Made by a program: the position numbers and the translations under genes. Source: Candidatus Lokiarchaeum ossiferum (GTDB taxonomy: Archaea; Asgardarchaeota; Lokiarchaeia; Sigyniarchaeales; Promethearchaeaceae). From it: a stretch of 32,000 nt of DNA. Shown here piece by piece: positions 1,428 through 32,000 of the stretch (positions within the stretch are counted from its first letter, which is position 1; each line of letters opens with the position of its first letter). Where the stretch lies: assembly GCA_025839675.1 (NCBI GenBank), contig CP104013.1, positions 690,001 to 722,000 on the forward strand. The letters run 5' to 3'. The notes below the pieces were generated by a model. That model worked only from the letters and a program-made list of their open reading frames with translations, ran no database searches and had not been told where the DNA came from.

Positions 1428-1552
1428 AATTATTCACATGAACCTCTTTTTATGTTTACATTAATTAAAATGTGATAGCGTTGAATATATTATCACATTT
1501 TATGAGAGAGTTTTCGATTATAGACAAATAAATCTTTTGTGGAGAAATTCAG

Positions 1553-3587: not shown

Positions 3588-3612
3588 TTTGTTTCACCAT
3601 TTTATTTGATTT

Positions 3613-3650: not shown

Positions 3651-4016
3651 AACCATTGTTAATCATCCTATTTAAATCTTTATTTCCTTCAGAGACACAT
3701 CATCAAGCTATTTTAGTTTTTAGTTTAGATATACTATATATGACATCCAATTTCTAAAATATCCCGTAATAGATGCGCGATCTCTTAGTATTTGGAATAT
3801 CCAAGACGTATCGGGAATTACTTGATGATGTTATTTCATTTTTATTATCATTCATTTTACCATCAAATCATTTTTTCTTATTAAGTCGCCATCCCAGCCC
3901 TTTTGATTACAGAATATAGACTCATTATGGGAATGATCTTTATTTCGGATAGCACTCATAGATAATGGTTGTTACCAGTATCAAAATAATCTATAGAGGT
4001 CTGATAAAATATTCAG

Positions 4017-4026
4017 AAAAAAAAAA
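4017..4026 (-). terminator. Oligo-T tract (T10) 16 nt after the MFS paralogue 2 stop
   Basis: A10 on the plus strand directly downstream of stop codon 4043-4045. Confidence 0.45.
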
Positions 4027-4042
4027 TATGAAAAATCAACAT

Positions 4043-5356: not shown

Positions 5357-5484
5357 ATTATCTCCTAACTATATTGAGCATTAAATTTAGTTTAAGTTTT
5401 TTTTGTATGGGTAATTTTCCTGTGGTTAACTTCAACTTAAGAACTTGCAACCATGCAATCATATTTCTCTTTAAATGTGAAGGG

Positions 5485-5495
5485 AAAAAAAAAAA
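5485..5495 (-). terminator. Oligo-T tract (T11) 2 nt after the MFS paralogue 3 stop
   Basis: A11 on the plus strand abutting stop codon 5498-5500. Confidence 0.45.
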
Positions 5496-5497
5496 TT

Positions 5498-6820: not shown

Positions 6821-6839
6821 ATTATTTTATTTGAAAAAG

Positions 6840-6849
6840 AAAAAAAAAA
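6840..6849 (-). terminator. Oligo-T tract (T10, plus adjacent T5) 12 nt after the MFS paralogue 4 stop
   Basis: A10 on the plus strand inside the 41-nt spacer before paralogue 3. It could instead act as the T-rich promoter element of paralogue 3. Confidence 0.4.
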
Positions 6850-6861
6850 CTAATAGAACCA

Positions 6862-8199: not shown

Positions 8200-8318
8200 A
8201 TCATTTTTTCCCAAAATCCACTGTTTTGACAATAGAGTAATTGATTTACGAAATAGAAGAGATTTGAAGTAATAACTTCTGACAATTCAATAAATTTTAG
8301 TTTATGATATAATTAGGG

Positions 8319-15414: not shown

Positions 15415-15757
15415 TGGCCTTCTTTTGTTTCAAATTGTGAGTTGTACCAATTTTTTTCAATAATTTTTCAATGACATTAGGAGCATATTGAAAGAATATG
15501 GAATTCGAAATATTGCATTGTTCATCATTTAAATGATATATTGAGATATTTATCGAATAACGTAATATTTAGATAAGAGGAAGTTTCAATTTTAGTATAA
15601 GATCATATTCAGATATCACAAATTTTTAAGATAGCTTTGAAAAGCCCCTGAAGCATGAAAGTAGGATAAAACTGAAATTTTTTTTAGGTAGAAAGACTTT
15701 GTTTAATTATCTAACAATTGATTGGAATTATAATTTCTAACGATTAGGTGAAAATGC

Positions 15758-15958
15758 ATGGCAAAATGTCCAGAATGTGGTGGGGAAATGATATCTAAGT
15801 CCAAAAGGAAAATTTGTGAAACTTGCGGATTGAGTTTAACTGGAAGTCAATACGATAGCGCATGGGATAAAATTCGAGATAGCGCCCGAGATGAAGAAGA
15901 TACCTCAAGAAAACGTAATCGCGAATATCTGAATTGGTATGAAAGTTCGAAAAACTAA
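15758..15958 (+). CDS. Small (66-aa) zinc-ribbon protein
   Basis: MAKCPECGGEMISKSKRKICETCG (CxxC-x13-CxxC), followed by a charged helical tail. AGGTGA Shine-Dalgarno 6 nt upstream of the ATG; T8 tract 42 nt after the stop. Confidence 0.7.
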   Translation: MAKCPECGGEMISKSKRKICETCGLSLTGSQYDSAWDKIRDSARDEEDTSRKRNREYLNWYESSKN

Positions 15959-15999
15959 TTCTTCCCGAAAATGCAATTATGATTCATAAGCACTTATCC

Positions 16000-16007
16000 T
16001 TTTTTTT
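16000..16007 (+). terminator. Oligo-T tract (T8) 42 nt after the 66-aa zinc-ribbon gene stop
   Basis: T8 run read directly from the sequence. Confidence 0.4.
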
Positions 16008-16181
16008 AATCTATTTCTGTGCCATCAACCCCAACCATAGTATTTAAGAAATTAATTAAATAAGATTAAATATACCCTAAATGTTATTTTATGTAGAGCT
16101 TAAGAAGAAAATTGATCAGAACAATCGAATCAATGACATATTTATAAGTTCTATTTGAAAAATTTGCATTATGTGATAGGA

Positions 16182-17378
16182 ATGGATGAGGATATCTTCG
16201 ATAACATACTAAGAACAGAATCTGTGTTCAAGAATCAAAAATCATTGAACCAAGCATGGGTTCCTGAAAAAGATCAGAAACTTCTTTGTCGAGATGATGA
16301 AATTAAAAGGCTTTTGGCAATTCATCGTCCTATAATTGATGCAAAAGGAGAATTTTCTGTAAATACTCTGATTTTGGGTAAAGGGGGCATCGGAAAAACC
16401 TTAACAGCTCGATACTTTGGAAGGAATTTTCGTCGAGTTGCTTTAAAACATGAAGTAAAAATTACGGTAGAATATTACGACTGTCTCCAACATCGAACGA
16501 AAAGTTCCATTCTCCGAAATATTTCAGAGAGGTTACATTATAGCGCAGGACATGGTTATTCGGATAACGAAATAATGCAACAAATTCTAAAGGAATTAAA
16601 AAAACGCAATGAATCGCTACTTATCATTTTAGATGAAGCCCATAACCTTTCTTCCGAAGATATTCTTGCTTTATTGAATGCATCCATAGGATTTGGTGAA
16701 AGTAATTCACGATTTTGTATAATATGCGTATCCCGGCCAACAGATTGGTATAAAGTTGATAATGAAAAAATTTCAAGTCGAATGCAAGATAAAATTTCAA
16801 TGGAACCCTATGCAAAAGAAGAAGCCCAAAAGGTTTTAAAATATCGGAAAAATTTGGCCTTTCGCGAGGGCATTATAGAAGATTTTGTTTTAGAATTAAT
16901 TGCTGATATTGTAGTCGAAAATAAGAACATGCGCACAGGCATAGATATAATGAGGGCTTGTGGGATTCGTGCAGACGAAAAAAGATTATCCCAAATTGAT
17001 TCGGATATGATATTGGAATCTCGAAATGATATAAATCCTACTTTCCGAGGGGATATTGTTGATCAATTGAAAATGCATGAAAAATTAACACTATGGGCAA
17101 TTGCTCGCACTTTACAAATGTCTCAAAATCCATTTACCAAAGTTGAGGCCGCATATGAAAACTATCAGGTTTTATGTGAAGAATTAGAGACTAAAGCTCA
17201 TGTTCCCATGAGTTTTCGAAAATATATTCGAAATTTAGCAGATGTGAAAGCGATCTACAAAGATTATCTAAATCCAACTAAAGACAAGAAAGGAAGACAA
17301 TTGCAGATTAAATTAACCGATATTAGTGCTGAAAAATTGATCGAATACTTTGAAAAATCAGTCCCTCGCCCTGATTAG
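16182..17378 (+). CDS. cdc6: Orc1/Cdc6 family AAA+ replication initiator (divergent)
   Basis: Track start 16155 is TTG; ATG 16182 is preceded by GTGAT (Shine-Dalgarno) and a TATA-like ATTTATAA at ~16142. Motifs: VPE...LLCRDDEI (N-terminal Orc1 pattern), Walker A LILGKGGIGKTLT, Walker B LLIILDEAH, a sensor-2-like MRTGIDIMRACG and a C-terminal winged-helix pattern LKMHEKLTLWAIAR. Confidence 0.85.
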   Translation: MDEDIFDNILRTESVFKNQKSLNQAWVPEKDQKLLCRDDEIKRLLAIHRPIIDAKGEFSVNTLILGKGGIGKTLTARYFGRNFRRVALKHEVKITVEYYDCLQHRTKSSILRNISERLHYSAGHGYSDNEIMQQILKELKKRNESLLIILDEAHNLSSEDILALLNASIGFGESNSRFCIICVSRPTDWYKVDNEKISSRMQDKISMEPYAKEEAQKVLKYRKNLAFREGIIEDFVLELIADIVVENKNMRTGIDIMRACGIRADEKRLSQIDSDMILESRNDINPTFRGDIVDQLKMHEKLTLWAIARTLQMSQNPFTKVEAAYENYQVLCEELETKAHVPMSFRKYIRNLADVKAIYKDYLNPTKDKKGRQLQIKLTDISAEKLIEYFEKSVPRPD

Positions 17379-17379
17379 T

Positions 17380-18387
17380 TTATTGAATTTTTTCTCCTGT
17401 GATTTCATTTGTATCTGGATCCATAAAGAATTCGAAATCGAAATGTACATGCTGGATCTGGACTAATTCTTCTAACATTTTTATTACAACTTTCATATCC
17501 TTTGGTCGATCTGCGGGCTCATATTGAGACATCTTCTTAACAACTTCATTATATTCAGTCGGAATATACCAATTTATGCTTTTTGGACTTAAAACATAAT
17601 CATCGTTATTTAAAATCTCAGAATCTTCTCGCATTATCCCGCCGGTGAAAACAAAATACATTAAGTGGGATAAATAATAAATATCTGAGGCGGCAGTAGG
17701 CATATATCCAAATTTAATTTCTGGAGGTGCTCCTTTTTGAGTAATGGGAATATCCATAGGCATTTTATCAGTCATGTATGGTTTGGGAGTATGAAAAATC
17801 CATTCTTCTCCAACATATTTTGATATTCCCCAATCGATTAAAACGGGCCAAAAATCATGAAGGTCATCTTCATCTTCTTCTTTAATGATGATTATGTTAT
17901 TCAGAGAAAAATCGCGGTGGACAATAAATTCATGGGAATGACAATAATCTAAATGTTTAGCTAAGGGAATGAAAATATTTCTAACAATACTGGACAAATC
18001 AAGATTTTCCAACCCTCGAGATGACTGAATAAATTCGCGATAAAAATCCAAAAATGTAATCCCTTTGATCAAAGAGAGTACCACATAATATTCTGGAGTT
18101 TGCAAATCTTCTTTCTTTTCATAGTGCAAGACTTTAACACAATGATTTCCGCAATTGGCTTGAGCAATAGTATTTAAGACTTCATTATCAAAGAACTCAG
18201 CACAATCATTTTTTTTTGTATATGGATCATAATATTGCTGATAAACAAATTCTTTTATTGCCACTTCTTCACCTGTTTCGGCATATTCGGCGAGAAATAC
18301 GGTGGAGAGTCCTCCCTTTCCTAAAATTTTTTTTACATTGAATGTGAATCCATCAATTTCTATAGATTTCCCAATCGTAATCGGCAT
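17380..18387 (-). CDS. Eukaryote-like Ser/Thr protein kinase (ePK fold) with atypical catalytic-loop and DFG residues
   Basis: 335 aa. Gly-loop GKGGLSTV, VAIK lysine (EVAIKEF), catalytic loop HRDFSLNN (17896..17919), DWG in place of DFG (17827..17835), APPE in place of APE, and a subdomain XI Arg (EPADRP). GGAGA Shine-Dalgarno upstream. Lies 22 nt downstream of the preceding gene. Confidence 0.85.
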   Translation of the reverse strand: MPITIGKSIEIDGFTFNVKKILGKGGLSTVFLAEYAETGEEVAIKEFVYQQYYDPYTKKNDCAEFFDNEVLNTIAQANCGNHCVKVLHYEKKEDLQTPEYYVVLSLIKGITFLDFYREFIQSSRGLENLDLSSIVRNIFIPLAKHLDYCHSHEFIVHRDFSLNNIIIIKEEDEDDLHDFWPVLIDWGISKYVGEEWIFHTPKPYMTDKMPMDIPITQKGAPPEIKFGYMPTAASDIYYLSHLMYFVFTGGIMREDSEILNNDDYVLSPKSINWYIPTEYNEVVKKMSQYEPADRPKDMKVVIKMLEELVQIQHVHFDFEFFMDPDTNEITGEKIQ

Positions 18388-18409
18388 TTAAATTCTCCAT
18401 TTAGTTTAC

Positions 18410-19402
18410 TCAGACAGAGTAATCCCACTCAGTGCGGCAAGCTTTGCAATAGTATTTTTTTGCATATTTTTTTACAGGAAAATAGGCGATAACTTTCTTT
18501 TTATTTTCTTGTTCAGCAAATTCTTGTTTGTCACATTTCGGACATTTAATTGCGCCATCAGATGGATATTCAATAGTTTGAATTCCATGAGTAGGGGCTT
18601 GAGATGAAGATATGGTAGATTTTGGAGATTTTGAATTTTCTGGTTTTGAATCTGAAGTTGAAATGGATTTTTCTTTTGTATCAGAGCGTGATTTCAAAAT
18701 ATCCGATGGTTTTCTGGAGACAACATCTTTAGGTGGTGATTGACGAGAAGAAATTTTTTCTTGAGACTGAGCTAATCCCGGGGAGATATAAGAAGATTTC
18801 GTAGTGGATGTGTTCGATCTAGTATCTTTATCTGGTAGTGTTTGCATGGAAATCGATTGTGAAGAAGATAATTGTTCAATTATCTGATCAATTTTAGTTT
18901 CGATGGAATGATTCTGTTTGCCCAAAGAAAACATACCATTTTTCAGTTGACCCATCAATTTTTCGGGGGATAAGGGGGCCGCTTTTTCTTTTTCAATTAA
19001 GTCATTTAGTTGTTTTTGAAGATCACTATTTTTTTGTTTTTCTTCAGCTAAGGTTAGTTTCATTCCTTCGATATCTGTTGCATAGCTTTTTGAAGATTCC
19101 TGCAGATTGGAAGCATTTTGTTGAGAATTCTCAAGTTCCTTTTGAAGCGTGATAATTTTTTGAGACAATTCTTCAATTTTTTGATCTTTTTCGATATTTT
19201 GTGAGGTAAGAATATCAATGGTTGTATTTGCTTCCATTTTCCCCGTTTGATCAGATGAAACAGAGGCGTTCTTTAGTTCATCAAGCTCTACTTGTAATGC
19301 ATTTATTTCCTTTTTTTGCTTTAATACTTGTCCCCTCAATGCATCCTTCATTTTAGCGAGTTTTGCAATTTCATCTTCTTTGATTTTAATTAATTCTTCC
19401 AT
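18410..19402 (-). CDS. Coiled-coil protein with Ser/Thr/Pro-rich linker and C-terminal zinc ribbon
   Basis: 330 aa. Residues ~1-180 are heptad-like and Glu/Lys/Leu/Gln-rich (KEINALQVELDELK, IITLQKELENSQQN, LQKQLNDLIEKEK). Residues ~180-270 are low-complexity Ser-rich with SP/SPPK/SPKS motifs. The C-terminus is CPKCDKQEF-x24-CKACRTEWDY. GAGGA Shine-Dalgarno upstream. Confidence 0.75.
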   Translation of the reverse strand: MEELIKIKEDEIAKLAKMKDALRGQVLKQKKEINALQVELDELKNASVSSDQTGKMEANTTIDILTSQNIEKDQKIEELSQKIITLQKELENSQQNASNLQESSKSYATDIEGMKLTLAEEKQKNSDLQKQLNDLIEKEKAAPLSPEKLMGQLKNGMFSLGKQNHSIETKIDQIIEQLSSSQSISMQTLPDKDTRSNTSTTKSSYISPGLAQSQEKISSRQSPPKDVVSRKPSDILKSRSDTKEKSISTSDSKPENSKSPKSTISSSQAPTHGIQTIEYPSDGAIKCPKCDKQEFAEQENKKKVIAYFPVKKYAKKYYCKACRTEWDYSV

Positions 19403-19674: not shown

Positions 19675-21021
19675 ATGCTTATTTCACAAAAAGTAATTTG
19701 TGATTCCATGACTAAACCCATAATGTCTGACCATTTTATAGACCGAAAGCCTTCAGATATCAGAGCCGCGCAGATTGAGTTTGCAAAAAGGACTGATAAC
19801 GTGAAAGCCATTAATGTTGCCATCGGAAATGTAAGTTTACCTATGCATCCTGCATTATTCAAAAGAATGTCGAATTTAGCAGATGATTCTAGCCCATTTA
19901 ATAAAGGAGTATTAAAATATACTGCTACGGTAGGGATGAAAGAAACAAATCAAGCAATTTTGAATATAATTGCAGCAAGTAATTTCAAAGTTGACAACTT
20001 GTATTCTCAAATTACAGATGGTGGGAGCCACGCTATGGAACTTGTAATAATTGGAACATGTGGTGCAGCCGGAACTTCGGAAAAGCCATTGATGTTAATT
20101 GATGCAGCCTATACAAACTACTTATCCATGGCAAAACGAACTGGAAGAGCTACAGTTTCCATCTCAAGAAAATTACAAGAAAATGGGAAATTTGCACTCC
20201 CCGACATTTCGGAAATCGAAAAAATGATTGAAACAGAAAAACCTGGTGCATTGGTAGTAATCCCTTATGATAATCCTACTGGACACTTCTATGATCACCA
20301 AACTATGATAGAACTTGGTAAATTATGTGTGAAATACAATCTTTGGATGATTAGCGATGAAGCATATCGGGAATTATATTACGTTGATACTCAAACTTCA
20401 AGTATTTGGGGTTTAACAAATGATAACGTTCCAGGAATAGAAGGAAGAAGAATCAGCATAGAAACTGCGAGTAAGGTTTGGAATGCATGCGGATTGCGCA
20501 TTGGAGCATTAGTTACGGATAATTATGAATTCCATGAAAAATGTGTTTTTGAGCAAACAGCCAATCTTTGCGCCCCAGCTATTGCTCAATATATAATGGG
20601 AGGTTTAGCTCATGAAACAAAGGAAGATTTACAAGCTTGGTTTTTAAAACAGCGAACATATTACAAGGAAATTGGACAAGCTTTAATAGAAGAATTTCAT
20701 GAATGGGTTCCAAGTGGAATTATTTCCAGCCCAGATGCATCACTTTATTCTGTAATTGATGTTCGAAATATTGCAAAACCAGGATTTGATTCATCCGATT
20801 TTGTGAAATATTGTACTAAAACAGGAAAAGTTGAGATTGACGGTACAGAATATACATTATTAGTTGCCCCAATGTCAGGATTTTATAAGGTAAAAGAAGG
20901 ACAACCAAATCCAGGGAAAACACAAATGCGCGTAGCCTACGTAGAGACATTAGAAAAAATGCGCTTAATCCCAGAACTATTTGCAAATTTGTTTAATCAA
21001 TTTGAATCACAACGTACTTAG
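19675..21021 (+). CDS. Pyridoxal-phosphate-dependent aminotransferase, class I/II
   Basis: 448 aa. Carries the NPTG motif (PYDNPTGHFY), D-x-x-Y (SDEAYRELYY) and the PLP-lysine signature SKVWNACGLRIGAL (S-K-x5-G-x-R-x-G). The alternative start ATG 19708 (MTKPIMSD) is preceded by GTGAT. Confidence 0.85.
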   Translation: MLISQKVICDSMTKPIMSDHFIDRKPSDIRAAQIEFAKRTDNVKAINVAIGNVSLPMHPALFKRMSNLADDSSPFNKGVLKYTATVGMKETNQAILNIIAASNFKVDNLYSQITDGGSHAMELVIIGTCGAAGTSEKPLMLIDAAYTNYLSMAKRTGRATVSISRKLQENGKFALPDISEIEKMIETEKPGALVVIPYDNPTGHFYDHQTMIELGKLCVKYNLWMISDEAYRELYYVDTQTSSIWGLTNDNVPGIEGRRISIETASKVWNACGLRIGALVTDNYEFHEKCVFEQTANLCAPAIAQYIMGGLAHETKEDLQAWFLKQRTYYKEIGQALIEEFHEWVPSGIISSPDASLYSVIDVRNIAKPGFDSSDFVKYCTKTGKVEIDGTEYTLLVAPMSGFYKVKEGQPNPGKTQMRVAYVETLEKMRLIPELFANLFNQFESQRT

Positions 21022-21161
21022 GTTTCGTTTTTTCTTATTTCCTTTTTTTCCTAGAATATTAAGGAATTCTTTTTGGAATTTTTCCAATATATGGTCTATT
21101 TACTATTGCACTTTTTCTAATTATTTGAGCAATTTCAATAAAATTATGGATACATTCATAT

Positions 21162-22088
21162 ATGAACCAACCAAAAATCGCACTTATGGGTTTAGATAAT
21201 GCAGGGAAGACATCAATAGTAAGGGTGTTAAGTAGAGAATTTGAAAATATAAGCAATTTATCGCCCACTACTGGTATTGAACGTCATTATTTAGAGTTGT
21301 TGGATACGAAAATAATGATCTGGGATTACGGAGGTCAAAAATATTATCGCGAACAATTTCTAAAATCCTCTAAGATTAACCTTTCACAAACAGATGTATT
21401 ATTGTACGTGATTGATATTTTAGATAGTGAAAGATATGAAGAGTCATTAGATTATTTAAAGCACATTTTTCAAAGACTTTTTGAGAACAACCACCAGTTT
21501 CATTTTGGAATTTTATTTCATAAATTTGATAACATTGAAGATACAACTTTTCGTGACTACATGAAGAATTTGCTCCACGAAATAGTTAAAATGTTAGGAA
21601 AGTCTCCAATTCCAATCGAATTTCGGAAAACTACCATTAATAATCCTCTATCTATTATCGATTCCATATCAAAAATGATTTTTAAATTTGAAGGATTTAC
21701 AAACCCAATATCAAATTCATTAACGATTTTTGCAAATAAATGGAATTTGAGCAGCATTCATTTATATGCAAGTAAAAAAATTGAATTGGGATCTTATTCA
21801 GTAAAGAAACCCCCTACTTCAGAAGTAAAAAAGGAATTACTTGCGTTTATAAAAAAGTATGATACAATTTTAGATGTCGTTTTTAAGTTAGAAAAAGAAA
21901 TTAGACAAGAAACTTACCATTTCACCAAATTCTATTTGAATACAGGCAATATCCCTAATCCTATTTATTTAGTTTGGTGTTCAAAAGTTTCTATGTCAAA
22001 GAAATTCGAAAATGGATTATTTAGCCTTAAAGAATCGATTAAGACACTTTTATCAAATATTAACATAAATCAACCGATGTTAAATTAA
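21162..22088 (+). CDS. Small GTPase of the Arf/Sar/Rag superfamily fused to a ~140-aa C-terminal alpha/beta (roadblock-like) domain
   Basis: 308 aa. G1 is GLDNAGKT (21189..21212, identical to the Sar1/Arf P-loop). There is a switch-I Thr in SPTTGIE. G3 is WDYGGQ (21321..21338) and G4 is HKFD (21519..21530; His replacing the Asn of NKxD, as in Rag/Gtr). The length and the C-terminal half with alternating strand/helix propensity resemble Rag/Gtr architecture. Confidence 0.8.
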   Translation: MNQPKIALMGLDNAGKTSIVRVLSREFENISNLSPTTGIERHYLELLDTKIMIWDYGGQKYYREQFLKSSKINLSQTDVLLYVIDILDSERYEESLDYLKHIFQRLFENNHQFHFGILFHKFDNIEDTTFRDYMKNLLHEIVKMLGKSPIPIEFRKTTINNPLSIIDSISKMIFKFEGFTNPISNSLTIFANKWNLSSIHLYASKKIELGSYSVKKPPTSEVKKELLAFIKKYDTILDVVFKLEKEIRQETYHFTKFYLNTGNIPNPIYLVWCSKVSMSKKFENGLFSLKESIKTLLSNININQPMLN

Positions 22089-22447
22089 CAAATTTTATAA
22101 TTTTTTTACTTGTAGCATTATTATTTAAAAAAATGACTCTATTTTGAGATATGAAAATTTGAATAGCATTACAAGTAGTATGATCCCTTGATATGATAAA
22201 TTAATGAAAACACTAAAAACAGCAGAATTTTTTCTTAGATCATCTTAAAGAAAGAAATTTTAAGCTGAAACCAAGTTGCTTATCGAAATATATCTCAGAA
22301 AAAATAGCTATAGTGTCCCTTTTTAAATCATTCATTTTTTATTCTTTTTGCTCTATATAAACAAAATCGATTTTTTATACAAAGGTATTTAGAATCAAAA
22401 ACACTACGTTTTTCATTATTCAAACAAAAAAAAAAAAAGTGATATAA

Positions 22448-25400
22448 ATGAAGTTTAAAAAAATTTCTTCCCTTGCAATGCTTTCTTTAATATTTATACT
22501 TCCTGCATTAAATTCAATTACCCAGATCTCACCTCGCACAGAATTTTTTGAACCAGTCAGTATTTTACCAGATGAGAGATCAATTAATAATCCTTTATTA
22601 AAATCAGCAGCATCCGCATATCCGTGGTGGAATGACACCTACGAATACCGTATCCCGGTTGTGTTAAACCCTAATGGTGTATCACATGATAATGCACCGA
22701 TAGAATTTCGTATAGATTTCGCTTCAATTTTAGACGTTTCAGGTAATCCCATCTCAGACGAACATGTTAATACAACAAATATCCAAGTTATAGAGCAGAC
22801 GACATCAGGAGGTTTCACACAATATGTTAATCAATATGATCCACTACCACTTTCAAATGGTGACGAAGGAGAAATCGCCTGGATTATCGATCAAACAGGA
22901 TTTAGCACCAATAAAACATTCTTTATTTATTTTTGTTTAGGAGATACTGATAAATATGGTGATCCAGTTTATGATTCGCCCTATTCCCGCAGTTTATCGG
23001 ATGACCCTATTCGATTGTTCCATAATGGATTTGAAGAAGGAACTGTGGCGCCATTAGATCCATTTATGACATATAGTACGGATTATGGAGCAAGTACAGT
23101 AATTTTAAATGATTATACAACAGGAATTCAAGGAGAAGGTGCTTTAGAGATACAAGGTGATATATGGGCAATGCAAGCATTACCTGCATCAATAGATACG
23201 ACAGATCCAACATATTCAAATCTTTTTTTAACCTATCAAGTTCAAGCTTATGGTTTAATCAATAAATTTGATTATATGGCCATGGGAGTAGCCGCTTCAG
23301 AAAATGATTTTTATTGGCGTGGATATCAACATTGGGGAGAAGATTCCCATGTAAATTTGTATTCTGACTCCATTTCAAGTGCTAATGTTTGGAATTATTT
23401 TGCTATGGATTTACAAACGACTGTTGATTATCCGGATGGATTGGTAAATTATGTTTTATTTATACTGGAAGATAGTGACATAAAGAGAAACGATGATAAT
23501 CGATTTTATTTTGATGATATTTCAATCTGGAATCAAGAAGTTGGACAACATCAGACAACTGATGTAGAAGTAGATATTCAAGCACTTGAGATACCATTTG
23601 CGAGTATTAACCTTCTTGTTTTAGATTCTGATGGGAATGCGCTTCCAAATGCCAATGTTGAAATGAAAAAAAGCGGTGAAGAAATTTATTATTATGGAAC
23701 TACTGATGAAAACGGTCAAATTTCATTTACTGATATAGATTCAAGTCAAGATTATGATTTTACTCTAAATTATTCCACCCAAGGCATTGAAGCTGCTGAA
23801 ATTTTTAATATTGCATCGGAATCTTTCAATAGTGATTTACAAGATATTACTATCTTTGCCGATATATGGACGATGAATTACAGTGTCACGGATTATGATG
23901 GTGATATTTTCAATGACGGCTATGTTGTGCTCTACAATAATACTGCAGCTCAAGAACCAGTCGGTAATGTCACTTTAGATGGTAGTGGCAATTCAATAAT
24001 TCGATACTCCAATAAAACGGACAGCTATAACTATAGCGTCTTTTATGATACGAATTTGTTCGACCAAGGAACCTATGCAACAAATCAACTTGAAATTGCC
24101 TCAGATCTCATCAGTTCAACCCAAAATGAATTAGTCAGCGCAAATATATCTACATTGACATTCAATGTATCTGGCTACACTTCAACAGATACAAGTTCCT
24201 TGGGATATGCGTCTTTAGAAATTACAAATGGTACTTATGGGGATTCAATTGCAAATATCACAACCGATTCTGCAGGATTTGTTGATTTTTTGTATTTTCG
24301 ATCAAATAACTCAGTATTAAACAATTATACTATGCATCTTAAATTTTTAGGTGGAAATCAATCAATAAACGCAACAGATACACCTCAACGGTCGCCTAAA
24401 CTTGGTGGTGAATGGCAAGATTACCTCAATTTTAGTCTTGATACAAAAATGACAAAAGATATTTTAGTTGATTTTCTCGATGATGTTGAATATTCAACGA
24501 ACATCACAGCCGTATCATTTTCTTCAGGAGCCAATTTCAACCCAGATTGGGGAGAACTCTTAGAATTCCAGGTTAATTATACATCATACGATGGAGATTC
24601 TGTAATTTTAACAGATCCCGATACAATAGAATATGAAATGTATGATACAGCCTTGAATTTAGTGAAGAGTGGAACTTTAGTGAAGCATTTAGAAGGTATT
24701 TATAATTTAACTTTAGATTCATCCGAATTTATTGCAGGTTTCACATACAGGTTAGATTTTATTGCCTATAAGTCGGGTTATCCATCTCCAACAAATACTC
24801 CAAATGCCATTATTAAAATTGAAAAGTTAGGAACTACATTTGAAATATATGACGCATCAACAGGTTTAGCGATAGATGGACAAACAATAAATAAAACATG
24901 GGGGGAGATCTTTGATGTGGAAGTAGTTTATAAATTACAAAGTCCTGAAGAAGAATTATCAGGAGCAACTGCAATATTGGATTGGGATTATGATGTGGAA
25001 GCATCCATGGTTGAGCAAAACTATGCGGGATTTACCAATTATACATATTCCGTAAATACATCTAAATCTCCAACGACAGGTCTATTTGATTTCGATTTAA
25101 CTGCAGATTTATTGAACCATACTTCTTTAGCTTCTTGGTTTAGATTAGAAATCCTTGAAATTCCCACTGCAATAAATCGGGATGCCTATACAGATCCGAT
25201 TACCCTATATTGGGAAGAAAATTTCACGATGTCCTTGAATTATACCGATACTTTCAATAACGTGGGTATTGAGGAAGCTTATCTTTACTACAATATTGTT
25301 GGTGACCCAGATTTCAATGAATATCCAATACCGGAAACAGGAACATCAGGAATCTACGAGATAACTTTGAATTCCACATCTTTTGGAGAAGCTGGAACTT

Positions 25401-28400
25401 ATACATTCCAAATTGTTGGGCAGAAAACGAACTATGAAAATCAACAATTATGGATTTCGGCAGTAATAAATATTGTCCCAACGATACTTACAGCAGAATC
25501 AATTGAATTAACACCCTATTGGAATCAAAATTTTACTTTGTCCTTGAATTCGACAGACACTTATTTTAATCGAGCGATTAATGATAGTTCAATTACCTAT
25601 TCTGTTTCTGGTCCAGCGAGCTTTAGTGAATCAGGTGAGATAAATTTTGTAGGGAATGGAATCTATGAAAAAGAATTCAACACAACCCACTTTAACCAAG
25701 CGGGATTATATACTTTTCAACTTGAATCAACCAAAAATCAATATGAATCCCAACTACTGACAATCACCGTAGAGATTCAAATTGTTCCCACTACCTTATC
25801 TTCAAATCATAATGATGATAAAATAACAAAGCCATTAATTTCCGCACCATTTGACATTTCGGTGCATTTTGAGGATGTATTAAATTCTTTAAATATATCT
25901 GATGCCACTGTGTCATATAGTGCAACCGGCCCAGAAAATTTTGCTGATTCAGGAACAATGATACATGTTGGAAATGGAAATTACAATATTTCGGGCATAG
26001 ATCCTGCTACTGATTATGGTTCAATAGGAACCTACTCATACCAGATAATCGCCACCAAAAATCAATTTGAAACACAATATATTACAATCACAATAAATAT
26101 AGGGATAATTTCGACAAATCTTACATCCAACCATCAGAATAATGAAATAAGCGTGTATTGGGATGAAGATTTCACACTTAGCATAAATTTTCTGAAATAT
26201 GATGACAGTACACCTATTAGTGGAGCAACAATCGCCTACGTGATAACAGGCCCGAGTAGTTATAGTAGTACAGGAATTTTAGATTATATTAGTGATGGTA
26301 TCTATTCTCAAGATTTTGATACCAATGTTGTTTATTCGACCGCAGGTACCTATACATTTGTCATTTCAACGAATATATCAGGATATGAATCTCAGCAAAT
26401 CACAATTTCCTTGACGATTGAAACAATTCCAATGAATTTATCCACAAGTAACACAGAATTGACTATTTTTTGGGAAGAAGATTTTACTCTTTCGGTAGAT
26501 CTTGCCGATGGAAGAAATTCAAATGCAATCACATCGGCGTTAGTGAGTTATTCAGCTGCAGGAACAGGAAGTTATTCGGATATAGGAACACTCACTCATG
26601 ATGTGGGAAATCCGGGCACATATCGAATCACATTTAGTACTCAAACATTTAATCAAGCCGGTATTTACACATTTAGTATTTCAGCAACAAACCAATATCA
26701 TATTGAACAATCGCTAACGATTACTATCAACATAAATACTCGAGAAACAGCGATTTCAACACCTAGTACTGAAATTGGAATTTCATATGATGATAGTTTT
26801 TATTTGAATATTACATTCACAGATGTTTCATATCCAGCAAGTCCGACAGGTATAAGCGGTGCAACAGTTAGTTACAGTGCATCCGGACCAAGTAGTTATA
26901 CAAGAGTTGGGATATTAACCTACAATATTAATGGAAACTATTTAATCCAATTTAACGCTTCTGAAGATTTCCCACAAGAAGGGACATATAATTTCTTAAT
27001 TACTGCGACCAAAAATCAATATGAAACTCAACAAGTCTCGATAACAGTAAATATCAATATTATTAATACTACGCTGACGGCCACTGAAGATTATATTAAT
27101 AAAATTGCAGGAGAATCATTCACACTTTCCGTTTTATACTATAATGTTACGAATGGAGAGACTCCAGTGAATGGCGCCACTGTATCATATACACTATCAG
27201 GATATTCTGGTGCATCATTAACTGAAGATGGAGCAACGGGAAATTATTCCATCCAATTGAATGCAGATGATTTCGGAACTGGCACATTCACTTTCCAGAT
27301 TACAGCCACTAAAAATCAATTTGAAACTCAACAACTCCTGATAACCGTTGATATAGGGTTAAATGCAATGAACTTGACGGTTTCTCTAATTGAGAATCCA
27401 GCCCAGATATATTGGAATGACAATTTCACCCTGAGTGCAGAATTGAAAGAAGACGCAGACTTTGTTGATGAAGCTATTGTATCCTATTCGGTTATTAACT
27501 ATCCAAATATTAATGGAACTTTTATGGAAGGTACCAATATATATACAATTGAGTTCAATTCTTCCTCTTTCCCCGAAGCAGGTTCGTATTCGTTTGAAAT
27601 TGAAGCAACAAAAACAAATTACGGAACCAGAACAAAAACAATCATAGTCATTATTAAGATTGTTCCAACGAATTTCACCTCATTGCACGTGGAAGATACG
27701 ATTAATGCCCATTGGGAAGAAGATATCACGATCTTTGTCAATCTGACAGATATTCAAGACACTAACAATGCCATCAACATAACGGATGCAAGCGTTACCT
27801 ATACGGCAGCAAGTTTAGCCGCCTTTAGTGGCCCGTTGACACATTCGACAGGAGGTTTGTATTACCTTTCCTTTAATGCGAATGATTTTGGTGGAGCGGG
27901 ATCCTACACAATTAAAATTACTGCCCAAAAAAATCAGTTTGAAACCCAACAACTCACCATTACGGTGATCGTTGAAATTTTGCCCACAATTTTGGTGAAT
28001 GAAAATAGTGATTCGGTCGGCTATTGGAAAGACGAAGTCACCTTTTCATATAATTTTACCGAAACTTTTACTTCCACACAGATAACTGACGGTGTGATAT
28101 TATATTCGGTGGAACAGATCCCATCTCTCACAGGGACATTAATACATCAAACAGAAGGTATCTACACCGTTTCATTAAATACAAGCCAATTTTTGAGTGC
28201 TGGAACCTATACAATTCACCTTGAAGCCACTAAATTCCAATATCAAACCCAAACTAAATCTCTCACTTTAACGATTTCCATTTTACCCACTAATGTTTCT
28301 ATTATTGCGGAAAATGTTGTTGTTTATTGGGAAGAGAATTTCAGCCTCTTGGTAGGATATGCTGATACCCATAATGATATTAATGTAACCGATGCGATTG

Positions 28401-31400
28401 TTTCATCCAACTTAGTAGGAAGTACATTGTATAATAACTTATTAACCTACATTGGAAATGGATTGTACTTGTTAGAATACAACACAACAGAATTCCCAGA
28501 TGCAGGGAACTATACGTTCCAAATAAATCTTGGAAAAAATCAATATGAATCCCAACAAACATGGATCTATGTGCAAATTAATATTCTTCCTACTCACATT
28601 TCCTCTGAAAATGAAAGTATTGTAATTTACTGGGAAGATTCCTTTACATTATCTGTTGACTATGTTGATACACACAATAATAATCGATCGATAAGCGGAG
28701 CAACTGTAGCATTCTTACAAAGTGGGGAATCTGTTTATAGAACTATGAATTATCAAGGAGATGGAACTTATACTTTTGTTTTGCAATCAGATATTGATTT
28801 TACAGAAGCGGGACCTTATGAATTTTTAATTGAAGCTAAAAAGGATCAATATCAAACGCAAATATTTTGGATCGATGTTGAAATTTTGATTGTCCCAACA
28901 AATGCGAGTTCTAACCACAATAATAATAAAATTAACAAAGAACTTGTCGATTCATTCCAAATCTCAATCAATATGGAACAAATAATTGAGGTGCTTAATC
29001 CGATAGGGATCCCTGATGCAACAGCGACATTCAGTGTATCAGGACCAGAGGGATATAGTGCTCAAGGATCCTTATCCCATATTGGATCGGGAATTTATAA
29101 TAGTTCGATAATCCAAGCGAGTGCAGAATATGGCGGAATAAAAGGAACTTATGTCTACCAGATTACAATTACTAAGAATCAATATGAAACTCAATATTTG
29201 ACAATTACTGTTAATATTGCAGTAACTCAAACAATTTTGACCACGAATCATCAAAATGATGAAATTAATGTGTATTGGGATGAAGATTTTGTCTTGAATG
29301 TAACTTTCTCAGTATTAGAAGATACAGTTCCTATTACGGAAGGTACAATATCTTTTACAATGACTGGACCTGGAAGCTATACAAATTCAGGTAGTTTAAC
29401 CCATATGGGCTCAGGCGTCTATGAAAAGCCCTTTGATACAGATTCAGTATTTACATTAGCAGGTACATATACATTCTATCTCACTGCAACAAGGTTAGAT
29501 CATGAAACCCAACAAAAATCAATATCTCTAACAATATCAATAATACCTACTAACTTAAGTTCGATTGTAGGTTCTTCCGTTTCCCTATTTTGGGAAGAAT
29601 CGTTTACGATTGCTGCTAATCTAACAGATGGTAGGGACAATACACCTATCACAAGTGCATTACTGCAATATACTGTCACAGGTACGGGAGATTATTCAGA
29701 TGTGAATATACTAATTCACCAAACAGATGTTCCAGGAACATATAATCTGACTTTTAACTCGATTAATTTTGGTCAAATTGGAACGTATAATTTTTTGGTG
29801 ACTTCCACTAAATCCCATTATGTTTCCCATCAATTCACAGTGACTGTACATATTTTAATCCGAGAAACTGATTTTATGGCAGAAGAAACAGACATTGATA
29901 TCACCTATGATGAAAGTTTCTTGATCAACACAACATATACAGATATTTCCCATCCAACAATTCCTCAAGGAATTTCTGGTGCAACTATAAGTTACACCGC
30001 GACGGGAGATAATAGTTATGTCATGGTGGGAGAATTGACTTATATTACAAACGGGCAATATGGATTTACTTTTATTGCAGATGTGGTTTTTCCTCAAGAA
30101 GGAACCTATTCATTCCAAATAGTTGCAGAAAAGGACAACTATGAAACAAAACAATTGACAATCACGGTAAATGTCATTGTAGTTTCCGCAAACTTGAGTG
30201 CATCTGAAGAATTGATTTCAAAGAGTTGGGAAGAAAACTTCACCTTAAGTATTTTGTATACAAATATCACAACTCCAGGAAGTCCATTGGGGATTGAAGG
30301 TGCCACAGTGTCTTATACAATTTCTGGATTGCCTGCATACTCAGGATCCCTTGAAGATGTGGGTTTGGGAAGATATGAACTGGAATTGAATACAAGCGAT
30401 TTTACAGAATTTTCTGATTCAGGAACATATGTTTTTCAAATTACTGCTGAAAGAAATCAGTTCCAAACAAAACAAATCTTGATCTCCCTTGAAATGGATT
30501 TAAAACAAATGAATGTTACAATAACGCTTGTTCAAAATCCAACTCAGATATTTTGGGGGGATAACTTCACTCTAAATGCAGATCTTAAAGAAGAAGAAGG
30601 ATTTGTTACAGGAGCAACTGTTTTTTACACTGTTTTGGATCATCCTACAATATTCGGAAATTTCTCTGAAGGTGGGAGTTTATATTCAATTCTGCTAAAT
30701 TCGACTATTTTCCCAAATGTTGGTTCATATACCTTCGAAATTGAAGCATCAAATGACGGCTATGGAACACGGACTAAAACATTTGTTGTTGAAATTAAAA
30801 TTGTACCAACGGAATTACTTTCTTTACACATAGACGATACAATCGAAGCATATTGGAATGATCCTATTACCATGAGTTTTCAATTCACCGATATTCAAGA
30901 TGAAATATCTCCCACATTCATTACTGGAGCCAAAATTACATACACTGCTACTAAATTAACACCCTATACTGGCAATTTAACTTATCAGGGTGATGGAATT
31001 TATAGCTATTCATTCAATGCAAGTGATTTTGGTAAATCTGGAACCTATTCAATTCAAATTCGGGCAACTAAAAATCAGTATTTATCACAGCAACTTGTTT
31101 TAACTGTTGAGGTCAATATCCTTGAAACCAGTTTGGAAACTGATGCTTTGAATTTGGATGCATTTTGGTTAGACGAGGTGAATTTTACGGTTTCCTTCCA
31201 AGATGTTACAAACAGTGAAATGATAACAAATGGAAATATAACCTTTTCAGTATCTCAGGTTCAAGGGTTAAATGGAACAGTAACTCATATGAATTCTGGA
31301 ATCTATTCCATAACATTGGATACAACACAATTTCTTAAAGCAGGGGAATATACCATTGTATTTGAAGCGAAAAAATTCCAATATGAAACCCAAACATTAT

Positions 31401-32000
31401 CCTTCATATTGGACATAGTAATACTTCCAACAGCCTTTACTACTGATCAATACAATATTAATATTTTATGGGAAGAGAACTTTACCATAACAACTCATTA
31501 TTCAGATACGGAATATGACAATAATATTAATGATGGAGAAGTAAAATTCACAGTGGGTCAAGTTTCAGGCCTTTCAGGAAATCTTACAGTAGAAGGAAAT
31601 GGAAATTATAATATAGAATTAAGCTCTACGCAATTCCTTGGGGTGGGAACTTATTCCATTTTTATTCAAGCAACAAAATACCAACATCAAACAAGAGATA
31701 TTTTAATTTATTTAACAATCAGTCGAATTGATACTACTATCAATCAATCGATTTTCTTACAAAGTGATGTTGTTATGAATGTTACTACTTCAAATGTATT
31801 CCATTTCAGTTATATTGATCAATATGATCGATTTATCGAGAATGCAACAATCGCTTATTACGAATTACAAAATGGTAATACGATAACTTCTGGCACACTT
31901 GAATACCTCGGAAATGGAATCTATGAACTCGATTTGGATCTTGAATTGAAACCGGTGGGGACTTATTTGATAGTTATTCATTTGGGAATTGAAAATTACT
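22448..32000 (+). CDS. Giant secreted/surface repeat protein (more than 3184 codons in window, 3' end beyond the right edge)
   Basis: Absent from the ORF track because there is no stop in the window. ATG 22448 is preceded by GTGAT. Signal-like N-terminus MKFKKISSLAMLSLIFILPALNS. Hand translation of 22448-23640 is stop-free, and frame checks at 25730 and 31664 give the same frame (position mod 3 = 2). Domain content by eye: a DUF2341-like start (YPWWNDTYEYRIPVVLNP); a possible jelly-roll region; about three carboxypeptidase-regulatory-like beta-sandwiches (e.g. LVLDSDGNALPNANVEMKKSGEEIYYYGTTDENGQISF); then at least 22 modules of ~105 aa. Only short ORFs occur in the other five frames here. Confidence 0.9.
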   Translation, partial: MKFKKISSLAMLSLIFILPALNSITQISPRTEFFEPVSILPDERSINNPLLKSAASAYPWWNDTYEYRIPVVLNPNGVSHDNAPIEFRIDFASILDVSGNPISDEHVNTTNIQVIEQTTSGGFTQYVNQYDPLPLSNGDEGEIAWIIDQTGFSTNKTFFIYFCLGDTDKYGDPVYDSPYSRSLSDDPIRLFHNGFEEGTVAPLDPFMTYSTDYGASTVILNDYTTGIQGEGALEIQGDIWAMQALPASIDTTDPTYSNLFLTYQVQAYGLINKFDYMAMGVAASENDFYWRGYQHWGEDSHVNLYSDSISSANVWNYFAMDLQTTVDYPDGLVNYVLFILEDSDIKRNDDNRFYFDDISIWNQEVGQHQTTDVEVDIQALEIPFASINLLVLDSDGNALPNANVEMKKSGEEIYYYGTTDENGQISFTDIDSSQDYDFTLNYSTQGIEAAEIFNIASESFNSDLQDITIFADIWTMNYSVTDYDGDIFNDGYVVLYNNTAAQEPVGNVTLDGSGNSIIRYSNKTDSYNYSVFYDTNLFDQGTYATNQLEIASDLISSTQNELVSANISTLTFNVSGYTSTDTSSLGYASLEITNGTYGDSIANITTDSAGFVDFLYFRSNNSVLNNYTMHLKFLGGNQSINATDTPQRSPKLGGEWQDYLNFSLDTKMTKDILVDFLDDVEYSTNITAVSFSSGANFNPDWGELLEFQVNYTSYDGDSVILTDPDTIEYEMYDTALNLVKSGTLVKHLEGIYNLTLDSSEFIAGFTYRLDFIAYKSGYPSPTNTPNAIIKIEKLGTTFEIYDASTGLAIDGQTINKTWGEIFDVEVVYKLQSPEEELSGATAILDWDYDVEASMVEQNYAGFTNYTYSVNTSKSPTTGLFDFDLTADLLNHTSLASWFRLEILEIPTAINRDAYTDPITLYWEENFTMSLNYTDTFNNVGIEEAYLYYNIVGDPDFNEYPIPETGTSGIYEITLNSTSFGEAGTYTFQIVGQKTNYENQQLWISAVINIVPTILTAESIELTPYWNQNFTLSLNSTDTYFNRAINDSSITYSVSGPASFSESGEINFVGNGIYEKEFNTTHFNQAGLYTFQLESTKNQYESQLLTITVEIQIVPTTLSSNHNDDKITKPLISAPFDISVHFEDVLNSLNISDATVSYSATGPENFADSGTMIHVGNGNYNISGIDPATDYGSIGTYSYQIIATKNQFETQYITITINIGIISTNLTSNHQNNEISVYWDEDFTLSINFLKYDDSTPISGATIAYVITGPSSYSSTGILDYISDGIYSQDFDTNVVYSTAGTYTFVISTNISGYESQQITISLTIETIPMNLSTSNTELTIFWEEDFTLSVDLADGRNSNAITSALVSYSAAGTGSYSDIGTLTHDVGNPGTYRITFSTQTFNQAGIYTFSISATNQYHIEQSLTITININTRETAISTPSTEIGISYDDSFYLNITFTDVSYPASPTGISGATVSYSASGPSSYTRVGILTYNINGNYLIQFNASEDFPQEGTYNFLITATKNQYETQQVSITVNINIINTTLTATEDYINKIAGESFTLSVLYYNVTNGETPVNGATVSYTLSGYSGASLTEDGATGNYSIQLNADDFGTGTFTFQITATKNQFETQQLLITVDIGLNAMNLTVSLIENPAQIYWNDNFTLSAELKEDADFVDEAIVSYSVINYPNINGTFMEGTNIYTIEFNSSSFPEAGSYSFEIEATKTNYGTRTKTIIVIIKIVPTNFTSLHVEDTINAHWEEDITIFVNLTDIQDTNNAINITDASVTYTAASLAAFSGPLTHSTGGLYYLSFNANDFGGAGSYTIKITAQKNQFETQQLTITVIVEILPTILVNENSDSVGYWKDEVTFSYNFTETFTSTQITDGVILYSVEQIPSLTGTLIHQTEGIYTVSLNTSQFLSAGTYTIHLEATKFQYQTQTKSLTLTISILPTNVSIIAENVVVYWEENFSLLVGYADTHNDINVTDAIVSSNLVGSTLYNNLLTYIGNGLYLLEYNTTEFPDAGNYTFQINLGKNQYESQQTWIYVQINILPTHISSENESIVIYWEDSFTLSVDYVDTHNNNRSISGATVAFLQSGESVYRTMNYQGDGTYTFVLQSDIDFTEAGPYEFLIEAKKDQYQTQIFWIDVEILIVPTNASSNHNNNKINKELVDSFQISINMEQIIEVLNPIGIPDATATFSVSGPEGYSAQGSLSHIGSGIYNSSIIQASAEYGGIKGTYVYQITITKNQYETQYLTITVNIAVTQTILTTNHQNDEINVYWDEDFVLNVTFSVLEDTVPITEGTISFTMTGPGSYTNSGSLTHMGSGVYEKPFDTDSVFTLAGTYTFYLTATRLDHETQQKSISLTISIIPTNLSSIVGSSVSLFWEESFTIAANLTDGRDNTPITSALLQYTVTGTGDYSDVNILIHQTDVPGTYNLTFNSINFGQIGTYNFLVTSTKSHYVSHQFTVTVHILIRETDFMAEETDIDITYDESFLINTTYTDISHPTIPQGISGATISYTATGDNSYVMVGELTYITNGQYGFTFIADVVFPQEGTYSFQIVAEKDNYETKQLTITVNVIVVSANLSASEELISKSWEENFTLSILYTNITTPGSPLGIEGATVSYTISGLPAYSGSLEDVGLGRYELELNTSDFTEFSDSGTYVFQITAERNQFQTKQILISLEMDLKQMNVTITLVQNPTQIFWGDNFTLNADLKEEEGFVTGATVFYTVLDHPTIFGNFSEGGSLYSILLNSTIFPNVGSYTFEIEASNDGYGTRTKTFVVEIKIVPTELLSLHIDDTIEAYWNDPITMSFQFTDIQDEISPTFITGAKITYTATKLTPYTGNLTYQGDGIYSYSFNASDFGKSGTYSIQIRATKNQYLSQQLVLTVEVNILETSLETDALNLDAFWLDEVNFTVSFQDVTNSEMITNGNITFSVSQVQGLNGTVTHMNSGIYSITLDTTQFLKAGEYTIVFEAKKFQYETQTLSFILDIVILPTAFTTDQYNINILWEENFTITTHYSDTEYDNNINDGEVKFTVGQVSGLSGNLTVEGNGNYNIELSSTQFLGVGTYSIFIQATKYQHQTRDILIYLTISRIDTTINQSIFLQSDVVMNVTTSNVFHFSYIDQYDRFIENATIAYYELQNGNTITSGTLEYLGNGIYELDLDLELKPVGTYLIVIHLGIENY
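25160..32000 (+). repeat. Tandem array of about 22 coding modules of 300-325 bp (~100-108 aa each) inside the giant ORF
   Basis: The recurrent module ends ...AG.Y.F.I.A.K(N)QYE[TS]Q...I.V.I.I(V/L)PT and the next begins ...[IVL][YF]W[ED]E[ND]FT[LM]S. By-eye boundaries: 25160, 25475, 25785, 26100, 26425, 26740, 27055, 27355, 27660, 27975, 28280, 28585, 28895, 29220, 29545, 29860, 30175, 30490, 30800, 31120, 31425, 31730. Two more divergent modules probably precede these (about 24440-25160). Confidence 0.85.
25785..32000 (+). repeat. Higher-order repeat: ten-module cassette (~3.1 kb) present twice in tandem (block A ~25785-28894, block B ~28895 to beyond 32000)
   Basis: Module n of block A matches module n of block B much better than it matches its own neighbours. 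Anchors: identical 20-mer GTGTATTGGGATGAAGATTT at 26153 and 29270 (offset 3117 nt = 1039 codons); GAAATTGAAGCA at 27596 and 30737 (offset 3141 nt = 1047 codons). Unusual linkers correspond position for position (NINTRETAIS / HILIRETDFM; DIGLNAMNLTVSLIENPAQIYWNDNFTLSAELKED / EMDLKQMNVTITLVQNPTQIFWGDNFTLNADLKEE). Confidence 0.8.

Follow-up and report, generated by a model that had tools for sequence, protein, structure and literature searches.

To which family of small GTPases does the gene at positions 21162 to 22088 of the DNA analysed here belong, how does the long C-terminal half of its product fold, and is the gene tied to its neighbours? The DNA, hereafter the window, is a stretch of 32,000 nucleotides from the Asgard archaeon 'Candidatus Lokiarchaeum ossiferum' (contig CP104013.1, positions 690,001 to 722,000). 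A preliminary description, made from the sequence alone, had proposed a small GTPase combining a Sar1/Arf-type P-loop with a Rag-type G4 motif and a roadblock-like C-terminal half, and had implied that the protein was something new. In this study, we conclude that the gene product is very probably one of the Asgard Gtr1/RagA-family (Rag-like) GTPases and has a roadblock fold in its C-terminal half. It is also an ordinary member of a class already known from the literature, from the PDB and from the paper on its own genome, because the family has been catalogued in that genome and crystal structures exist for two relatives from Lokiarchaeota; novelty can thus not be claimed for it.

A complete and conserved GTPase gene

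As stated in the preliminary description, the open reading frame (ORF) listing gives a gene for a protein of 308 aa that starts with ATG (Table 1); no earlier in-frame start codon exists in this frame, which opens at 21129. When the gene was compared with its 77%-identical ortholog (reference locus L001), 91 synonymous versus 72 nonsynonymous codon differences were counted, indicating purifying selection. A profile search returned 1,688 relatives, and an exhaustive search returned 1,584 representatives, of which 550 had E <= 1e-10. With some 1,600-1,700 relatives per search and Pfam E values of 1e-19 to 1e-25, the sequence similarities place the gene far beyond chance. Family members are mostly 300-330 aa long, and many representatives of 300-325 aa align over query residues 4-304. 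In a collection of reference genomes other than that of the window, 411 family loci were found, and several genomes carried multiple paralogs. Among the best 80 of these loci, all that bear a taxonomic name but one belong to the Promethearchaeota (Asgard archaea). The exception, L049 (DATKTW010000021.1), is labelled 'Candidatus Nanopelagicaceae bacterium' and carries a protein typical of the conserved Asgard group (family hidden Markov model [HMM] E 2e-138); L049 is most likely an Asgard contig mis-binned into a bacterial metagenome-assembled genome. The earlier view of the product as a protein of eukaryotic-signature type agrees with the Asgard source of both the gene and its relatives.

G-domain motifs of Arf/Sar and Rag type

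When the full-length protein was compared with Pfam, Gtr1_RagA (PF04670) ranked first with 89.5 bits (cut-off 22; E 2.9e-25; residues 5-205), followed by Arf (70.1 bits, E 2.1e-19), MMR_HSR1, SRPRB, Roc and Ras. The G domain alone scored 80.8 bits for Gtr1_RagA, 71.5 for Arf and 25 for generic Ras, so that the HMM comparison proposed in the preliminary description placed it with Rag, then Arf, and far above generic Ras.

Motif conservation was assessed in 116 family members, whose alignment also served for modelling the full-length protein with AlphaFold2 (AF2). GLDNAGKTS, P-T, DxGGQ, HKxD and T-(T/S)-I were invariant or nearly so, and all of them are present in the query. Three motif calls made earlier held up in this comparison: GLDNAGKT is indeed of Arf/Sar type, as opposed to the G(K/R)SGSGK(T/S) of RagA (GKSGSGKT) and Gtr1 (GRSGSGKS); WDYGGQ stands at G3; and HKFD corresponds to the HKMD of RagA and Gtr1. 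The query begins with MNQPKIALMG, with beta1 at about residues 5-10, and an Arf-type N-terminal amphipathic helix is absent. Its sole Cys is residue 273, and there is no C-terminal lipidation motif. In the AF2 model, the predicted local distance difference test score (pLDDT) was low at residues ~26-35, in keeping with the mobility of a switch. Judged by its motifs, the G domain appears intermediate between Arf/Sar and Rag, combining an Arf/Sar-type P-loop with a G4, a G5 and a switch-II length of Rag type.

A predicted roadblock fold in the C-terminal half

The C-terminal domain (CTD) is invisible by sequence, and its fold assignment therefore rests on AF2 and Foldseek. When the CTD was modelled alone (pLDDT 78.9, predicted TM-score 0.76), the secondary-structure elements followed the order alpha1-beta1-beta2-alpha2-beta3-beta4-beta5-alpha3 (Table 1), which is that of a canonical roadblock domain. 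A Foldseek search with this model gave 25 matches at E <= 0.001, all of roadblock fold except the uncharacterised mouse protein 2gnx. Among the matches were the CTD of RagA (6s6a_B, E 8.5e-5), the Lokiarchaeal Rag-like GTPases LokiRagO (query TM-score [TMq] 0.65, root-mean-square deviation 2.7 A) and LokiRagM, the RagA CTD chain of a LAMTOR complex (6ehr_F), MglB and Ragulator/LAMTOR subunits. Thorarchaeal and MK-D1 Roadblock proteins and a Streptomyces Robl/LC7 domain matched at E 1.4e-3 to 2.2e-3. In Rag/Gtr, MglB and LAMTOR, the roadblock fold is a platform for dimerisation and for the docking of other roadblock or longin proteins. On these predictions the C-terminal half of the GTPase folds as a roadblock domain, as the preliminary description had suspected. 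That description had also counted about 140 extra residues, close to the 133 assigned here; its order of strand-strand-helix-strand-strand-helix was replaced in the model by alpha-beta-beta-alpha-beta-beta-beta-alpha.

Closest structures and known systems

The best sequence matches in the PDB were 8zla (E 7.6e-29, query residues 2-237) and 8yl2 (E 2.7e-24), both deposited as 'GTP-binding protein'. According to their Foldseek descriptions, 8zla (also 9m28) is a monomeric Rag-like small GTPase from Asgard Lokiarchaeota (LokiRagM), and 8yl2 is a homotetrameric RagA-like small GTPase from the same group (LokiRagO); the structures were released in 2025-2026. When the 116-member profile was run against the PDB, it matched Gtr1 (E 7.8e-24; profile 3-293 to Gtr1 residues 2-287) and RagA (1.5e-23), and further RagC (~4e-18), Arl3 (1e-17) and Sar1 (1e-12). 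With the full-length AF2 model, the top 34 Foldseek matches were all LokiRagO, LokiRagM or full-length Rag/Gtr proteins (RagA, Gtr1, RagC and Gtr2), mostly with TM-scores of ~0.5-0.66 over ~300 columns, and 0.42-0.45 for two LokiRagM entries.

LokiRagM resembles the query as its best PDB sequence match, with roughly a third of aligned residues identical, in its G domain plus roadblock architecture, and in an 'NPxS(I/V)I' stretch after G5; it differs in being longer (385 versus 308 aa, owing to a longer C-terminal region) and in a domain orientation unlike that of the AF2 model, as the low TM-scores indicate. LokiRagO is the best structural match to the whole protein (E 3e-21, TM 0.66, 300 columns), shares similar motifs (GLDNSGKT, HKFD, TTIYD) and also fits the CTD well; it comes, however, from the other branch of the family, which is better conserved. 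RagA/B and Gtr1, and more distantly RagC/D and Gtr2, share with the query the two-domain architecture, an HKxD G4, a TSI-type G5 and the switch-II length. RagA/B and Gtr1 likewise have neither a lipid anchor nor an amphipathic helix, and their full-length TM-score is ~0.65, with Gtr1_RagA as the best Pfam family. In contrast to RagA and Gtr1, the query has an Arf/Sar-type P-loop, does not keep the W-D that follows TSI in G5 and is only 17-19% identical; unlike eukaryotic Rags, it has no paired RagC-like partner gene nearby in the window.

Weighing the Rag-like assignment against alternatives

Several observations weigh against the assignment to the Rag-like family. With the G domain alone, the margin of Rag over Arf in Pfam is only ~9 bits; the Rag-type P-loop pattern G-x-S-G-S-G-K-(S/T) does not fit the query, whose P-loop is Arf/Sar-like; and its G5 reads TTINN, diverging at the last two positions from the family consensus T-(T/S)-I-(F/Y)-D. 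For the CTD, Pfam found nothing relevant in residues 161-308 at E up to 1, and a profile of 33 CTD sequences found nothing relevant among PDB sequences (best E 0.29). Both AF2 models are of moderate confidence (pLDDT 69.9 at full length, 78.9 for the CTD alone), and where confidence is lowest they conflict: residues 236-247 contain a helix (236-246) in the full-length model and beta3 in the CTD model. Given the small margin of Rag over Arf, the mosaic impression of the preliminary description was accurate.

Could the protein instead be an Arf/Sar1-like GTPase that remodels membranes, inserting into them upon GTP binding? The GLDNAGKT and WDYGGQ motifs are shared with Arf, Sar1 and Arl proteins, including Asgard ArfR, Pfam detects Arf at a low E value, and relatives carry the automatic NCBI name 'ADP-ribosylation factor-like protein'. 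We nevertheless give this idea hardly any credence. Arf-type proteins are single domains of ~180 aa with NKxD at G4; the query has HKFD, a G5 on the Rag TSI pattern and a roadblock domain that Arf proteins lack, and with beta1 starting at residue 5-6 it has no room for the amphipathic helix. Moreover, Gtr1_RagA outscores Arf for both the full-length protein and the G domain, single-domain GTPases including the Asgard ArfR structures rank below every full-length Rag match in Foldseek, and a published tree sets such 'Arf-like' Asgard proteins near Rag, outside the Arf clade. A fused MglA-MglB-like module, in which the roadblock domain would act as a GTPase-activating protein (GAP) or exchange-factor platform on its own or a partner's G domain, making the protein a self-regulating polarity switch and not a Rag-style scaffold, is improbable, if somewhat less so than the Arf alternative. 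Rag CTDs serve as dimerisation platforms and not as GAPs, as Rag/Gtr structures show. In favour of such a module, the CTD fits MglB (TMq 0.61-0.64) and Rag CTDs (0.52-0.65) to about the same degree, and PMC10933270 presents roadblock dimers that regulate small GTPases as an ancient prokaryotic arrangement. MglB and LAMTOR proteins share the roadblock fold of the query CTD (TMq up to 0.64); they are stand-alone proteins of 120-135 aa, however, whereas the query domain is fused to a GTPase, and no similarity can be detected at the level of sequence. The query also keeps Asp55 of DxxGQ, its G domain is closest to Rag and Arf, MglA is absent among the best 60 PDB sequence matches of both the protein query and the family profile, and at full length its two domains are arranged as in RagA and Gtr1, on which they superpose.

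Place within the Asgard family

The genome paper of 'Ca. L. ossiferum' Loki-B35 reported an enrichment in Gtr1/RagA GTPases, with several 'Gtr1/RagA family GTPase' ortholog groups in its supplement, and described the genome as rich in longin and NPRL2-like longin proteins. Earlier work found RagA-like GTPases to be abundant in Asgard archaea, counted GTPase-roadblock 'Rag-like' fusions as the second largest GTPase class of P. syntrophicum MK-D1, and proposed Asgard longins with a GAP-like arginine finger as candidate regulators.

Close relatives of the query are few: one full-length ortholog (L001), two fragments (70% and 56% identity), and all others at or below ~35%. Identity to the ortholog is 85% in the G domain versus 66% in the CTD, so that the G domain is the slower-evolving part. 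Compared with the large conserved Asgard group, the query CTD has ~14 fewer residues at the alpha2/beta3 junction, a stretch that in the group includes a nearly invariant 'R...YEFSD...SG' motif, and an insertion of 8 residues before beta5. This form of the CTD is common to a heterogeneous subgroup (P0126, P0127, P0129-P0132, P0138 and P0140). Sequence comparison thus identifies the query as a divergent paralog in the Asgard Rag-like family. Within the subgroup, P0131 has the P-loop GLPNSGKS and 'WNFEEAE' in place of DxxGQ, and P0132 has lost G3 altogether; both may be pseudo-GTPases that keep the roadblock domain.

In a rough neighbour-joining (NJ) tree with RagA, Gtr1, CIN4 and the two Lokiarchaeal structures as references, the query fell into the subgroup with this form of the CTD, and LokiRagM with it (bootstrap 57% for the LokiRagM side, 1% for LokiRagO, 0% for RagA/Gtr1). 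Because the tree is star-like and weakly supported, this grouping is only a hint.

Other architectures also occur among the relatives. P0005-P0009 are single-domain proteins of 176-183 aa that have the same GLDNAGKT, HKFD and TTIY motifs and no roadblock domain; a Pfam scan of P0005 placed Gtr1_RagA first. Relatives of 454-470 aa carry an N-terminal extension and, in place of the roadblock domain, a low-complexity C-terminus.

Oligomeric state and proposed mechanism

Eukaryotic Rag/Gtr proteins are obligate heterodimers of an A/B-type and a C/D-type subunit joined through their roadblock domains. As the preliminary description had noted, the window holds no second Rag-like gene: in a six-frame scan with the family HMM, the E value was 3.3e-76 for the GTPase gene and 0.094 for the best of the other hits. 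Pfam found no roadblock or longin gene in the window either, which is a weak negative result. Among the best 80 of the 411 family loci, only 5 have another full-length Rag-like gene no more than 5 kb away, and stand-alone genes are therefore the rule. Of the solved relatives, LokiRagM is a monomer and LokiRagO a homotetramer, and by its sequence the query groups weakly with the monomeric LokiRagM type. The segment of the query that is most divergent and least confidently modelled is the alpha2/beta3 region. In the roadblock dimers of MglB, LAMTOR and Rag CTDs, the beta3/alpha2 edge forms the dimer interface. The homodimer suggested in the preliminary description is neither favoured nor contradicted by these observations. 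It is highly improbable, in our estimation, that this fast-evolving paralog of the LokiRagM-like subgroup is, owing to its remodelled alpha2/beta3 region, a monomeric or differently partnered Rag-like switch which is wired to the neighbouring aminotransferase (amino-acid status) or giant surface protein and represents an archaeal precursor, independent of TOR, of nutrient signalling by Rags.

The G domain would be a competent guanine-nucleotide switch, with G1-G4 intact and G5 keeping T-T-I before it diverges. The P-loop Lys and Thr, the switch-I Thr, the Gln of DxxGQ and the HKxD for guanine recognition are all intact, and we infer from these residues that the protein would bind and hydrolyse GTP. 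As our best estimate of the mechanism, the roadblock domain would let the protein dock onto itself or onto further proteins of roadblock or longin type, and binding of effectors would be gated by the nucleotide state. Any recruitment to a membrane or a complex would be indirect, through partners bound by the roadblock domain as in eukaryotic Rags, because the query has neither an N-terminal amphipathic helix nor a C-terminal Cys. Its most likely role would then be that of a nucleotide-state-dependent scaffold in one of the host's many small-GTPase/roadblock/longin modules; we propose any specific cellular role with low confidence.

In eukaryotes, TORC1 is tethered to lysosomes and activated there by Rag/Gtr GTPases, which dock on Ragulator/EGO. 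To our knowledge, TOR has not been reported in archaea, and the pathway downstream of the query can therefore not equal the eukaryotic Rag pathway. Asgard relatives of Rag are part of the evidence that the small-GTPase/roadblock/longin toolkit predates eukaryotes. The query provides a clean case from an Asgard archaeon in culture. Its combination of Arf/Sar and Rag motifs illustrates that the two families share an ancestor, a point already established by the literature and the solved structures. Being a paralog that is open to experiment, in an organism that can be cultured, the query lends itself to asking what archaeal Rag-like proteins bind and whether they are dimeric.

Genomic neighbourhood and transcription

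As described previously, the gene lies between a class I/II aminotransferase gene (19675..21021) and the gene of a giant protein that starts at 22448, encodes more than 3,184 aa and is still open at the end of the window. The 77% relative (L001) is collinear with the window over at least 10 genes, in the order CoA ligase-like, LOG, two zinc-ribbon proteins, Orc1/Cdc6, Ser/Thr kinase, coiled-coil/Zn-ribbon protein, aminotransferase, GTPase and a giant protein of 4,495 aa, and the 56% relative keeps the order kinase, coiled-coil protein, aminotransferase, GTPase. Around the relatives at 32-35% identity, neither an aminotransferase nor a giant-protein gene is present; their neighbours are orotidine monophosphate decarboxylase, LigT and PALP genes.

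Identity between the upstream spacer and that of the ortholog locus is 84% (90% over a 166-column alignment including the gene ends), compared with 76.5% for the gene. Such conservation suggests conserved promoter or regulatory elements; it is not exceptional, since other spacers in the block reach 83-89% identity. From its T-tracts and TATA-like stretch (Table 1), the upstream spacer probably comprises a terminator of the aminotransferase gene and the GTPase gene's own promoter. The downstream spacer is only 58% identical to that of the ortholog locus. The T-tracts after the aminotransferase stop and this poorly conserved 359-nt spacer suggest separate transcription units, and the GTPase gene would be monocistronic, transcribed from a conserved promoter region of its own. 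A promoter and terminator scan with bacterial models was uninformative for this archaeal DNA, with matches at or below shuffle expectation.

Is the GTPase functionally coupled to its neighbours, reporting amino-acid status together with the aminotransferase or controlling the giant surface protein? The order of aminotransferase, GTPase and giant-protein genes in the 77% relative, the order of the first two in the 56% relative, and the well-conserved upstream spacer speak for such coupling. However, between close relatives the whole block of at least 10 genes is conserved and not the pair specifically, so that adjacency is no evidence of a functional pair; the relatives at 32-35% identity occur in an unrelated context, and the T-tracts and the poorly conserved spacer separate the gene from both neighbours. 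The preliminary description had itself labelled these links speculation. They were not borne out beyond the block conservation, and we regard either form of coupling as extremely unlikely. A conserved Ser/Thr kinase partner, considered in view of kinases near P0004 and P0010, was rejected: such a kinase occurs at only 1 of the 80 family loci, and that one is a close collinear ortholog.

Table 1. Positions of the GTPase gene, its domains and motifs, and the flanking spacers (window coordinates; residue numbers of the GTPase; aa, amino acids)
Feature	Window positions	Strand	Basis or remarks
Complete Rag/Gtr-like GTPase gene (very probable assignment), 308 aa, stop included	21162..22088	+	ORF listing; Pfam; PDB sequence and fold matches; purifying selection
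G domain, residues 1-175; no N-terminal amphipathic extension; beta1 starts at residue 5-6	21162..21686	+	AF2 secondary structure; Pfam
G1/P-loop GLDNAGKT, residues 10-17, Arf/Sar type	21189..21212	+	Invariant or nearly so in 116 family members
G2/switch I, Pro35-Thr36	21264..21269	+	Invariant in 116 family members
G3 WDYGGQ, residues 54-59, catalytic-position Gln59	21321..21338	+	D55, G57, G58, Q59 invariant; aligns to WDCGGQ of RagA/Gtr1
G4 HKFD, residues 120-123, Rag-type His replacing Asn	21519..21530	+	H120, K121, D123 invariant in 116 members; aligns to HKMD of RagA/Gtr1
G5 TTI, residues 157-159	21630..21638	+	Column frequencies; aligns to TSIWD of RagA/Gtr1
Predicted C-terminal roadblock-fold domain, residues 176-308 (133 aa)	21687..22085	+	AF2 of the domain alone; Foldseek
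CTD elements, residues: alpha1 182-193, beta1 198-203, beta2 207-213, alpha2 220-233			AF2, CTD alone
CTD elements, residues: beta3 243-247 (uncertain), beta4 250-257, beta5 268-273, alpha3 280-298			AF2, CTD alone
CTD loop with subgroup-specific insertion, residues 258-267			AF2, CTD alone
Upstream spacer	21022..21161	+	T-tracts 21028-21033 and 21043-21049 after the aminotransferase stop; A/T-rich TATA-like stretch ~20-30 nt before ATG
Downstream spacer, 359 nt, AT-rich, between the GTPase and giant-protein genes	22089..22447	+	T7 tract 22101-22107

Other features of the window

The giant protein (22448-32000, + strand, continuing beyond the window) has a hydrophobic, signal-peptide-like N-terminus (MKFKKISSLAMLSLIFILPALN) and weak Ig-like, MG2, THSD1_N and Invasin_D3 matches. 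Its gene evolves much faster than its neighbours, with 61.5% nucleotide identity to L001 versus 76-87%. On the minus strand at 17380-19402, two genes separated by a 22-nt gap form a probable operon, and the pair is kept in L001 and L011. The first encodes a coiled-coil protein of 330 aa with a zinc-ribbon-like motif, CxxC...CxxC, at its end, and the second a Ser/Thr kinase with the atypical motifs HRDFS and IDWG (DFG expected). Similar kinases (25-26% identity) occur near other Rag-like genes in L003 and L006. In these same two Lokiarchaeal genomes, the Rag-like gene has ~2-3 kb upstream of it what could be a GTPase-regulator pair (L003 4632-5781, L006 3135-4272): a small Arf/Ras-like GTPase gene and, after a gap of 2-5 nt, a ~190-aa gene without a Pfam match.

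In the region 15415-17378, a 740-nt spacer with 83% identity to its counterpart in the relative lies before the Orc1/Cdc6 gene (16155-17378, + strand); inside the L001 equivalent of this spacer, a gene of 66 aa is called. A search upstream of Orc1/Cdc6 for a replication origin revealed no convincing origin-recognition-box repeats, and Rfam and tRNA scans detected no RNA genes in the window. Four tandem paralogous major facilitator superfamily (MFS) transporter genes of 437-456 aa lie at 1605-8232 on the minus strand (MFS_1 E ~1e-53 to 1e-56), and a 168-aa ORF to which no function was assigned (3081-3587) lies between the first and second of them. Finally, a partial ORF cut by the window start (3-1433, minus strand) has right-handed beta-helix/NosD repeats (E 2e-32), and its product is probably another secreted or surface protein.

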